41,621 nt of DNA from a virus (lineage: Duplodnaviria; Heunggongvirae; Uroviricota; Caudoviricetes): the IMG/VR virus record IMGVR_UViG_644736364_000004. The stretch is one strand, 5' to 3'. The notes beneath the pieces were generated by a model. The model was not told the origin of the DNA. It saw nothing but the letters and a program-made list of their open reading frames with translations, and searched no databases. The first letter of the stretch is position 1. Each line of letters starts with the position of its first letter. Shown in pieces: positions 14,821-16,679 of this stretch. A program made the translations under genes and the position numbers.

Positions 14821-14840
14821 TATGCAATTGTTTACTAAAA

Positions 14841-14871
14841 GTTATTAAAAATGGGGCGTGGAAACGCCCCC
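14841..14871 (-). terminator. Rho-independent terminator downstream of the porin gene
   Basis: On the minus strand, stem GGGGCG/CGCCCC (plus 14853-14870) followed by AUUUUUAAU. Confidence 0.5.
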
Positions 14872-14956
14872 AAAATAAAGGGTAATATATAACAGAAGGT
14901 TTATATAGTAAGAAGCAAGGTAGTGCTTCTAAAGGAAGTGGCTTGAGGGCTCCACT

Positions 14957-14998
14957 TATATGTTGCGGAGGCAAAGCCTCCCGCAACATATCTTTTTC
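14957..14998 (+). terminator. Plus-strand terminator candidate after Q (possible tR')
   Basis: Near-perfect 14-bp inverted repeat ATATGTTGCGGAGG-CAAAG-CCTCCCGCAACATAT followed by CTTTTTCG. Confidence 0.5.
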
Positions 14999-15008
14999 GT
15001 AAGTCAGA

Positions 15009-16091
15009 TTAGAACTGATAAACCAGACCTACAGCGACGATGTCGTCGGTATCAATACCAGCTGTTTTGGTAAACTTACTATCGTCAATTAAGTTGATTT
15101 TGTAATCAACAAAAGTGGACATGTTTTTATTAAAGTAGTAAGTAGCACCGACATCGACATACTTGACTAAGTCTCGGTCACCATGAACACCAAGGTCTTT
15201 ACCTTTTGACTGAAGGTAAGCAACAGATGGACGCAGACCGAAGTCAAACTGATATTGTGCTACTGCTTCAAAGTTTTGTGCTTTGTTTGCAATATGGTTA
15301 TTACCAAAAACGGTCATATTCTGAGTTTCAGAATATGTGGTAGCCAGATAGATATTGTTCGCATCATATTTCAGGCCTGCAGCCCATACTTCCGCATTTT
15401 TGCCGGAGGCATTGAATTTGCTCTTACCATAGGCGACCTGACCGTCAGTGCGATCTGATTTAGCATAGGTTGCACCCACGCCGAATCCTTCATACTCATA
15501 AGTAGTGGAGAAACCGAAACCATCACCATTGGCTTCAGTTACGTCAGTGCGGTCATTTTTACCCTGATACTGAGCAGCAAAGTTCAGGCCATCGACCAGA
15601 CCAAAGAAGTCGTTGTTACGATAAGTTGCAACACCAGTAGTGCGACCAGTCATGAACACATCTGTTTGGGTCCAGGTATCACCACCGAATTCTGGCAGAA
15701 CGTCAGTCCACGCACCGATGTCGTATGCTACACCGTAGTTACGGCCGTAATCGATTGAGCCGTAATCACCAAATTTCAGGCCTGCAAATGCAAGACGGGT
15801 TTTGTCTTTGGAAGAACCTTGAGATTCAGCACGGTTGCCTTTGAATTCATATTCCCACTGACCGAAACCAGTCAGTTGATCGTTGATTTGGGTTTCACCT
15901 TTGAAGCCAAGACGGGCATAAGTAGTATCACCATCATCTGCATCATTAGAGGAGAAGTAGTGCTTGGCATTAACTTTCCCGTATAGATCCAGCTTGTTAC
16001 TGTCTTTATTATAAATTTCAGCTGCCTGAGCAGACATCGCCATCAGTACTGATGCAGCTACAGCAGAAATTGCCACTGTTAATTTTTTCAT
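15009..16091 (-). CDS. nmpC: Outer-membrane porin, NmpC/Lc (OmpC-like) type, 360 aa with signal peptide
   Basis: From the ATG at 16091: [39 protein letters not shown] … AVGLVYQF with the C-terminal Phe of beta-barrel porins; antisense to the flanking late genes. Confidence 0.9.
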
Positions 16092-16517
16092 TGTACGCCC
16101 TTTTTTTGAACTATTATTAAAAAATGATGTCACTGCGCGATAAATATTCATCTAATCAATGTGATTATTTCAAGATGTAAGTTTTAGTTTCTCATTTAAT
16201 TTGTGAAGTAGATCTCTATTTTTATCTGAACCTTTTCTATCTAATCCTATTCATGGCTCTTGTCTGAACAAAAATAAATCTATTAGCTAATTTATATTAA
16301 TGGCACTTATTTATAAGTGCTCTATAATTCTTTAGCTTAATTTAAACAAACTAAAAATAACATTGGAAATTATTAACTGGTTATTTGTTGAAGTTTTCTT
16401 ATGCATTTGTGGTGGTGTTTTGAACACTCGGTGGCATTCTCACAAATATCATTTAGTAGTTTACGTACGTAAAAAATTGGTTATGCTGTTAAGAGTGGTT
16501 ACTTCGTCACACAGCTT

Positions 16518-16550
16518 AAACCCGCCGTCGAGCGGGTTTTTCCATTTTTT
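16518..16550 (+). terminator. Plus-strand rho-independent terminator upstream of the lysis cassette (alternative tR' candidate)
   Basis: Stem AAACCCGC/GCGGGTTT with loop CGTCGA, followed by TTCCATTTTTTG. Confidence 0.55.
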
Positions 16551-16679
16551 GAGTCTCGATATTAGCTGATAACCCAATACCTGAGTTATTCACTGACTCC
16601 GAATCTGTTACGTTTCTGCCTTTATTGCGATACGTAGTATCCCCTTAATTTACACCCGCTTTGTCTGCGAGGTGGGGTT

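Follow-up and report, generated by a model that had tools for sequence, protein, structure and literature searches.

In the window analysed here, a 41,621 nt stretch of phage DNA (IMG/VR record IMGVR_UViG_644736364_000004, Caudoviricetes), the gene for an outer-membrane porin lies on the minus strand between the gene for the late antiterminator Q and the lysis genes. We read this region, with a probability of about 0.85, as a module of the type found in the Escherichia coli K-12 prophage DLP12, in which the porin cassette, with its own IpeX RNA tail, stands between Q and the late promoter pR', and pR' at 16460-16494 feeds the lysis genes. As pR' comes after the porin cassette, the late transcript should not cross the porin gene, which by alignment appears to lie upstream of that transcript and outside it. 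An earlier note on this DNA had supposed that late transcription must cross about 1.7 kb antisense to the porin. That supposition is not supported, since the PR' homologue lies at 16457-16541, with its start 187 nt before the holin, and K-12 has no transcription start site (TSS) in the spacer between Q and porin. The outcome that the earlier note had named as fatal to its proposal, a porin gene outside the late transcript, is essentially what homology and the public TSS data for K-12 DLP12 and the Sakai Shiga toxin (Stx) prophages point to. The features of the region, in window coordinates, are as follows.

14437..14820, plus strand: late antiterminator Q, QuuD/Q933W type (Q21/Q933W family; PF06530, 7.7e-54)
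14842..15008, minus strand: porin 3' untranslated region (UTR), IpeX-like, 167 nt, five stem-loops (homology to K-12 DLP12 and fold)
14844..14870, minus strand: porin/IpeX intrinsic terminator, stem-loop 14853-14870 with U-run (terminator scan)
14958..14997, both strands: bulged 15-bp hairpin, stem-loop 1 of IpeX (fold and conservation)
15009..16091, minus strand: general porin of NmpC/Lc/OmpD type, 360 aa (PF00267, 2e-151)
16092..16459, minus strand: AT-rich porin regulatory region with PnmpC (composition and K-12 homology)
16112..16124, plus strand: promoter with start A16123/A16124 and -10 TATTAT at 16112-16117 (K-12 Cappable-seq)
16460..16510, plus strand: late promoter pR' (933W/24B/Sp5 homology and K-12 TSS)
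16518..16550, plus strand: tR' candidate, hairpin with T-rich tail (terminator scan and conservation)
16680-16895, plus strand: holin, S21 type (P21-S; PF04971; RefSeq essD for the identical gene)
16895-17392, plus strand: lysozyme (PF00959; RefSeq rrrD for the identical gene)
17377-17850 and 17609-17791, plus strand: Rz and Rz1 (PF03245; RefSeq rzpD for the identical gene)

The late promoter pR' and its terminator candidate

Q (14437-14820) takes the RefSeq-style start at ATG 14437, and an identical gene is annotated quuD. Its product falls in PF06530, the Q21/Q933W family as defined by Yin et al. (lambda Q is PF03589), shares 81% amino acid identity over 120 residues with Q of phage 933W, and gives a distant match to the solved Q21 structure 6P18 (E=4e-8). 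Assignment to the phage 82 type was considered and ruled out, PF06530 being the Q21/Q933W family.

The spacer between porin and holin was compared with phage genomes by sensitive blastn. Positions 16457-16541 match, at 78% identity, the stretch that follows Q in 933W, 24B, Sp5 and other Stx phages, and the search returned no other homologue of the 933W/Sp5 PR' region beyond 16457-16541. In the 933W and 24B records, the late promoter and the first terminator are annotated within the homologous stretch. On this alignment pR' consists of a -35 hexamer TTTACG at 16460-16465, a 16-nt spacer and a -10 hexamer TATGCT at 16482-16487 (TATCAT in 933W), and the start falls at G16493/A16494 within an invariant initially transcribed block, TAAGAGTGGTTAC, at 16490-16502. 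Around this start we also find a palindrome specific to the Q clade at -34 to -21, an invariant block from +1 to +17, and a weak -10-like element, TACTTC, at +8 to +13.

Two public data sets locate the start experimentally in relatives. In the Sakai prophage Sp5, differential RNA sequencing (dRNA-seq) gives a PR' TSS that precedes by 258 nt the 3' end found with Term-seq at the second terminator (Sy et al. 2020, PMC7547250), and counting back 258 nt from the Sp5 terminator leads to the G/A of TAAGAG, which is G16493/A16494 in the window. The Sp5 start was anchored by this distance; the coordinates in the paper are those of NC_002695.1, and the record compared was version.2. Among the entries of the MG1655 Cappable-seq list (U00096.2; PMC4782308, supplementary file 1), the plus-strand TSS 576452 maps to 16493/16494 and thus within 1 nt of the predicted start, in a stretch (16459-16615) over which K-12 and the window are identical. 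The shift between genome versions, 776-777 nt, was calibrated on the v2 coordinate of essD given in PMC5811629 and PMC4448311, neither of which was otherwise useful on transcription. The same list shows no plus-strand TSS from 573406 (in quuD) to 575093 (in nmpC), a range that includes the spacer between Q and porin.

Homology and the public K-12 and Sakai data together give the pR'-tR' unit a promoter with a mapped start, and the pR' block is invariant in nine DLP12-type loci. The start is 1673 nt past the Q stop, so the promoter does not adjoin Q; the porin cassette lies between them. Relative to the porin start codon it lies 402-403 nt rightward, and transcription from it runs away from the porin and reaches the holin ATG at +187.

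Downstream of pR', a plus-strand hairpin at 16518-16539 (AAACCCGC-CGUCGA-GCGGGUUU; -12.0 kcal/mol, z=-2.9) was called as a terminator by the scan. It spans +25 to +46 and is followed by TTCCATTTTTT / UUCCAUUUUUU, with a U-run to about +57. Fold and terminator scans found no other terminator-like site between pR' and the holin; as the sole site of this kind on that path, 16518-16539 is therefore the tR' candidate, and it stands between the promoter and the first late gene. In 60 of 60 unique pR' variants, the stretch from +30 to +75 holds a hairpin with a T-rich tail, even where the hairpin sequence has been replaced. In the mechanism we propose, Q made from the early rightward transcript would act in trans on polymerase started at pR' and would let it read through 16518-16541 (tR', +25 to about +48) into the holin, lysozyme and Rz/Rz1 genes. 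Farther along the leader, a 17-nt stretch at 16616-16632 (CTGCCTTTATTGCGATA) is absent from K-12 DLP12, strain 1409, mEp332 and PhiR26_1, and is present with small changes elsewhere.

A scan of viral contigs for the pR' core, TAAGAGTGGTTACNTNGNCAC, gave at least 120 loci. Among the matches listed, a PF06530 Q protein (39-100% identical) is encoded upstream on the same strand in 99 of 120 loci, and for these 99 the distance from the end of the Q alignment to the pR' core falls into the following classes.

42-93 nt: 23 loci, adjacent, as in the Stx phages
0.6-0.9 kb: 9 loci
1.2-1.5 kb: 10 loci
about 1.67-1.69 kb: 34 loci, with the porin
1.5-2.0 kb: 18 loci, without the porin
2.3-2.5 kb: 5 loci

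The PR'-tR' units of the Stx phages 933W, Sp5 and 24B are homologous to that of the window (78%) from the -35 hexamer through the first hairpin, and share the invariant TAAGAGTGGTTAC; the TSS mapped in Sp5 corresponds to the same base. They differ in what surrounds the unit. In the Stx phages PR' overlaps the end of Q, the cargo (tRNAs, stx) lies downstream, and the leader continues to a second terminator at +258 (the StxS leader), whereas the window has 1.67 kb of antisense cargo between Q and pR', the first hairpin only, and the holin at +187. The lambda pR'-6S RNA-tR' unit follows the same logic, with a late promoter, a proximal terminator and a trans-acting Q, followed by S, R and Rz. The window departs from lambda in its Q family, in showing no sequence similarity, in a leader of about 50 nt instead of 194 nt, and in a promoter set apart from Q.

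The porin cassette and its IpeX tail

The porin gene starts at ATG 16091 (MKKLTV...), as in the RefSeq annotation of the identical gene, and has its stop side at 15009. A start at 16151 was discarded in favor of the RefSeq start, 16151 being merely the first in-frame ATG picked by a mechanical open reading frame (ORF) call. The match to PF00267 (Porin_1) is full-length (2.2e-151, profile positions 1-337 of 337), the score for the NCBIfam OmpC subfamily is 521 bits against a cut-off of 484, and PDB matches to OmpC, OmpK36, PhoE and OmpF have E<=1e-111, those to OmpC, OmpK36 and PhoE lying at about 1e-133 to 1e-137. Solved porin chains begin to align at residue 24 (AEIYNK, a mature N-terminus of the AE(I/V)YNK type), and residues 1-23 (16023-16091) are therefore taken as the signal peptide; the C-terminus, ...GLVYQF, ends in an aromatic residue, as is general among porins of this class. 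From these matches, a 16-stranded trimeric beta-barrel fold is near certain. At least 1000 contigs encode exactly this protein, with names that include 'porin OmpC' and 'outer membrane porin protein LC', and the lc gene of phage PA-2 is presumably the functional counterpart of nmpC. Pfam, these protein names and the layout of K-12 DLP12 bear out what the earlier note had seen, an NmpC/Lc-type prophage porin on the minus strand between Q and the lysis cassette. Its signal peptide is borne out by the mature OmpC, OmpF and PhoE chains, which align from residue 24, and its AT-rich flank by a GC content of 25-30% at 16100-16400, compared with 40-50% in neighbouring sequence.

In K-12, PnmpC lies within -199 to -1 of the nmpC ATG, with a TSS determined by 5' rapid amplification of cDNA ends, and is activated by Crp and repressed by OmpR, IHF and MprA (PMC11677980). 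The porin regulatory region of the window is 95% identical to that of K-12; a consensus and pattern scan of the porin upstream region returned no convincing promoter hexamers or CRP sites. With its own terminator at 14853-14870, a promoter mapped in K-12 (PnmpC) and a deviant GC content (25%), the porin cassette has the attributes of a moron, and we envisage a self-contained unit inserted on the opposite strand between Q and the late promoter. Its transcript would begin at a promoter of its own in 16092-16459, pass through the porin gene from 16091 to 15009 and then the 3' UTR from 15008 to 14842, and end at 14870-14853. By analogy with published nmpC/lc work, it would be made in the lysogen and the porin would enter the outer membrane, while the IpeX tail would lower OmpC and OmpF post-transcriptionally, changing porin composition and phage receptors; this function in the window strain is extrapolated from that of its relatives.

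Q and the porin stop are separated by 188 nt, a spacer about 94% identical to its quuD-nmpC counterpart in K-12 and found in 2501 of 5426 complete genomes. Counted from the porin stop, the U-run that follows 14853-14870 ends after exactly 167 nt (14842-15008), and the DLP12 ipeX gene is listed as 167 nt (PMC12197685). PMC3333887, PMC5069750 and PMC12197685, which cite Castillo-Keller, Vuong and Misra (2006, J Bacteriol 188:576) for IpeX, present it as a stretch of the porin mRNA that originates at the phage porin promoter and as a repressor of OmpC and OmpF. The published RNA has the same position, from the stop codon to a Rho-independent terminator, and the same length of 167 nt; the window sequence is about 94% identical to that of DLP12 and differs from K-12 at several loop positions and at the bulged base of stem-loop 1. 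Judged by position, length and sequence, the two hairpins next to Q belong to the porin 3' UTR, which is the known IpeX RNA.

The first of these hairpins, at 14853-14870 on the minus strand (GGGGCG-UUUCCA-CGCCCC; -13.8 kcal/mol, z=-3.0), is a scan-called terminator with a U-run, ATTTTTAAT / AUUUUUAAU, directly after the stem; across 11 homologues its stem is invariant and its loop variable. The second, at 14958-14991, is stable on both strands (plus, -21.9 kcal/mol, z=-6.7; minus, -22.5 kcal/mol, z=-4.9), and its stem is conserved, with a bulged base whose place is all that sets the variants apart. A CTTTTT tract comes after it on the plus strand only. The minus-strand form runs into AAGUGG, with no U-run, which rules it out as the porin terminator; a porin transcript is expected to pass through it and to end at 14853-14870. 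Given its plus-strand CTTTTT, the hairpin probably has a second role, halting unmodified polymerase that moves rightward out of Q. In K-12, an rrnB terminator placed in the nmpC/quuD spacer had no effect, and the authors infer that native intrinsic terminators in the spacer already block rightward transcription (PMC11677980). Stem-loop 1 of IpeX may also serve as a plus-strand terminator, keeping transcription that exits Q out of the porin gene. The four terminator-like sites of 14200-17000 are no excess over shuffled sequences (2.2 +/- 1.3), and the evidence for terminators therefore rests on individual stabilities and conservation.

The 167-nt IpeX sequence folds into five stem-loops with a minimum free energy of -53.6 kcal/mol (z=-6.5). 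Substitutions avoid the stems: among 11 homologues, 2 of 84 paired columns vary compared with 22 of 84 unpaired columns (Fisher p=1e-5). In the plus-strand equivalent, one of the changes, A-U to G-U, would leave a C-A mismatch, a pattern that fits selection on the minus-strand RNA. An Rfam scan of 13800-17400 at E<=1 gave two chance-level hits only (sau-19 and Trp_leader), IpeX being absent from Rfam. All three hairpins reported in the earlier note are present by fold and scan, with small coordinate corrections. Its minus-strand terminator at 14841-14871 is now refined to the stem 14853-14870 with its U-run and is the porin's own. Where it had hairpins competing for the role of tR', the plus-strand hairpin at 16518-16539 keeps its candidacy, and the two beside Q drop out as minus-strand IpeX parts of the porin transcript.

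Contrary evidence and rival explanations

Several observations weigh against the arrangement proposed here. The pR' hexamers score 8/12 to consensus, the same as two chance-level pairs in the spacer between Q and porin; the consensus score does not discriminate, and the assignment of pR' therefore rests on homology and the K-12 TSS. The Cappable-seq score at pR' in K-12 is low (1.7), and a TSS scoring 90.2 lies 370 nt upstream. The transcript-end evidence that we apply to the window comes from K-12 DLP12 and the Sakai Stx prophages. The Sp5 PR' leader ends in Term-seq at +258, past the homologue of 16518-16539 (PMC7547250), and the tR' hairpin may terminate only partially. A frequent natural variant of the ev099 type (phage ev099, L017, and at least 14 viral contigs), in which GCGGG becomes GCTGG in the 3' arm at 16534, weakens the hairpin from about -11.7 to -6.7 kcal/mol. 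By analogy with lambda, polymerase modified by N that started at pR and passed Q would still be expected, during lytic growth, to cross the porin antisense. A covariation test of IpeX across the 11 homologues found no compensatory base changes, variation being too low. Finally, phage Lambda_2E9 has a Q that is 88% identical and yet is without the pR' core (L008 505-630, 661-3387), so that Q type does not fully predict the promoter. Right after its Q comes TTGCTG-17-TAATGT with a terminator resembling Stx tR', and then, before the holin, an antisense lipocalin (Blc), a 2-thiouracil desulfurase/DUF1722 protein and an AraC-type regulator.

The behavior of the Sp5 leader, which passes the homologous hairpin and ends at +258, is one ground for regarding 16518-16539 as a conserved leader element, acting in pausing, Q loading or RNA stability and terminating inefficiently, with the lysis genes held off by other means such as a weak promoter or translation control. 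The stem, with five G-C pairs plus A-U pairs, the interrupted U-run (UUUUUCCAUUUUUU) and the common weakening variant of the ev099 type are consistent with this view, as is a report that the lysis genes of K-12 DLP12 are expressed at a physiologically relevant level (PMC7918800). We nonetheless consider it unlikely. Retention of hairpin and T-rich tail in all 60 variants despite replacement of the sequence is the signature of a terminator, there is no second terminator-like site between pR' and the holin, and short terminated RNAs would usually be missed by Term-seq and RNA-seq libraries.

The strong upstream start requires separate consideration. The MG1655 TSS at 576081(+), with a Cappable-seq score of 90.2 (U00096.2; PMC4782308), maps to 16123/16124 in sequence identical to K-12. 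The site is 32-33 nt past the porin ATG, which is on the other strand, and is directed at the lysis genes. Transcription from it must overlap the porin 5' UTR head-to-head, and about 420 nt of leader would precede the tR' hairpin. Rueggeberg et al., in 2013 and 2015, reportedly described sigma-E and Q control of the essD promoter. PMC7918800 cites those two papers for control of essD by Q and RpoE. That study cloned an essD regulatory fragment '-121..+650', and its forward primer, at 16019 in the window, implies a +1 near 16140, 16-17 nt from 16123/4. A search upstream of the holin for the sigma-E consensus gave no match at <=2 mismatches, and the sequence TGAACTA-16-TCACT has four mismatches.

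On these data it could be argued that the start at about 16123/4, probably the published 'essDp', said to depend on sigma-E and Q, is the main lysis promoter, that the pR' homologue is minor or vestigial, and that the leader of about 420 nt is stopped at 16518-16541; the Cappable-seq scores (90.2 against 1.7) and the nearby +1 implied by the essD clone speak for it. We regard this as quite unlikely, and take the start at 16123/4 for a competing or supplementary promoter. The promoter lies inside the porin cassette and outside the block conserved with phages of the Q933W family, whereas the pR' core follows Q in 99 contigs (among the matches listed) whatever the cargo. Loading of Q requires a promoter-proximal site, as established for lambda, 82 and 21, and the match to sigma-E is poor. 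A terminated pR' RNA of about 50 nt would be under-represented in RNA-seq libraries, in which case the low score would be no measure of promoter strength.

The K-12 Cappable-seq list contains other plus-strand starts in the region. One lies in quuD (about 14663/4 in the window, score 9.3), and two are antisense within nmpC, at about 15135 (16.8) and about 15495 (2.8). The first of the antisense starts sits 84 nt from the end of the insertion sequence IS5 in K-12; it may be IS5-related, and absent in the window.

Placement of pR' directly after Q (14821-14957), with the 14958-14998 hairpin as tR' and Q-modified polymerase running about 1.7 kb antisense to the porin, has the precedent of lambda and the Stx phages, in which pR' adjoins Q, the most stable plus-strand terminator-like structure of the region (14958-14991 with CTTTTT), two weak promoter-like pairs of 8/12 each (TGGAAA-18-TAATAT at 14859-14888 and GTAATA-16-TATAGT at 14882-14909) and the apparent promoter and terminator ahead of an antisense lipocalin gene in Lambda_2E9, but is highly improbable given a K-12 spacer with zero plus-strand Cappable-seq starts, the identity of that spacer as an IpeX 3' UTR with a minus-strand-specific substitution pattern, the position at 16457-16541 of the sole homologue of the PR' mapped in the closest characterised relative of this Q, the lack of effect of a terminator added to the K-12 spacer (PMC11677980), and a default promoter scan that was negative on its plus strand.

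The slot between Q and pR' and the spread of the module

The Stx phages have nothing in the interval that the porin occupies in the window; SfII has two other minus-strand genes there, and many viral contigs likewise carry other minus-strand genes. In the loci with ORFs listed, the cargo between Q and pR' is on the minus strand in 9 of 10. It includes a lipoprotein and proteins that match the PADLOC candidate defence families PDC-S20 (KAP NTPase-like; 6e-171), PDC-M68A (HNH; 7.5e-27) and PDC-S42 (8.7e-28). Lambda_2E9 was tried as an ancestral, cargo-free comparator and rejected, having different cargo, no pR' core and another promoter/terminator unit; in that phage an antisense cargo gene may really lie in the path of the late or early transcript.

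The palindrome at -34 to -21 is a perfect 14-bp repeat, TTTACGTACGTAAA, at 16460-16473, and overlaps the -35 hexamer of pR'. The site was also examined at L003/L004 904-917 and in the viral-contig loci L020-L139, and other lineages carry different palindromes at the same position: TTTACGATCGTAAA, GCGTACGC, GCGGTCCGC, TGTTATAACA, TGGAATTCCA and ATTCGTTACGAAT. The type of palindrome follows the clade of the Q protein regardless of the distance between Q and promoter (0-2.4 kb). We propose the palindrome as a candidate Q-binding element of the Q933W/QuuD subfamily, linkage being an alternative. A broader proposal, which we hold to be possible but doubtful, is that the Q-pR' junction is a dedicated, insulated slot for antisense cargo (porins, lipoproteins and candidate anti-phage systems), that the palindrome is a Q-binding element co-evolving with Q across as much as 2.5 kb of cargo, and that pR' moves with the lysis genes.

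The region as a whole is a standard late-regulatory and lysis module of a lambdoid prophage of the DLP12/qsr'/PA-2 type. Across 12.1-18.2 kb of the window, the plus strand carries ninB, a methyltransferase gene, rusA (13852-14214), ylcG and Q, and later the holin, lysozyme and Rz/Rz1 genes. After Rz/Rz1, a bor homologue lies on the minus strand (17882-18175); it is annotated in avian pathogenic E. coli (APEC) O1 as iss (increased serum survival lipoprotein) and is a second opposite-strand conversion gene beside the lysis cassette. Two small ORFs overlap the regulatory elements: a 68-aa ORF at 16363-16569 (plus strand), which overlaps pR'/tR' and appears as 'hypothetical protein' in some phage records, and a 58-aa ORF at 14813-14989 (minus strand), which overlaps IpeX. 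Neither gave a Pfam match, and they are most likely not genes.

K-12 DLP12 (qsr') has the same order of rusA, ylcG, quuD (Q), an opposite-strand porin, essD, rrrD, rzpD/rzoD and borD, with spacers 91-95% identical to those of the window. It differs in that nmpC is split by IS5 in K-12 (and by IS1 in B-type strains), whereas the porin gene of the window is intact, and in that DLP12 is a remnant at argU, whereas the window represents a complete lambda-like prophage at icd. The porin, its qsr'-type placement and the IpeX tail are already known, having been described since the 1980s and 2006; location of nmpC in the qsr' prophage goes back to Highton et al. 1985, as cited in PMC3333887.

Positions 14300-16900 are 100% identical to many E. 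coli chromosomes (APEC O1, ATCC 11775, uropathogenic strain 536 and ST95-type strains) and 99.9% identical to phage ev017, and at least 80% of this stretch is found in 2389 of 5426 complete E. coli genomes. From end to end, the window is collinear with the lambda-like prophage beside icd in APEC O1, at an identity of at least 99.4%. Two differences from that prophage were noted: at a repeat in the replication (O-like) gene (10620-10636) the window is about 66 nt shorter, and at 19697-19786 it has 90 nt extra.

Taken as a finding in itself, the antisense porin matters little, since the porin, its placement and IpeX have long been described and nearly half of the complete E. coli genomes carry the locus. 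The useful correction concerns architecture: in a widespread prophage type, a cargo gene separates the late promoter from Q. The conversion porin would then be off the path of the pR' late transcript, and the question of tR' has a clear candidate in 16518-16541. This architecture bears on the annotation of such prophages and on how the regulation of the DLP12 lysis genes in K-12 is read. If the junction is indeed a hotspot for antisense cargo marked by a palindrome that follows the Q clade, it would open Q specificity to experiment in the Q933W family, the family in control of Shiga toxin expression.

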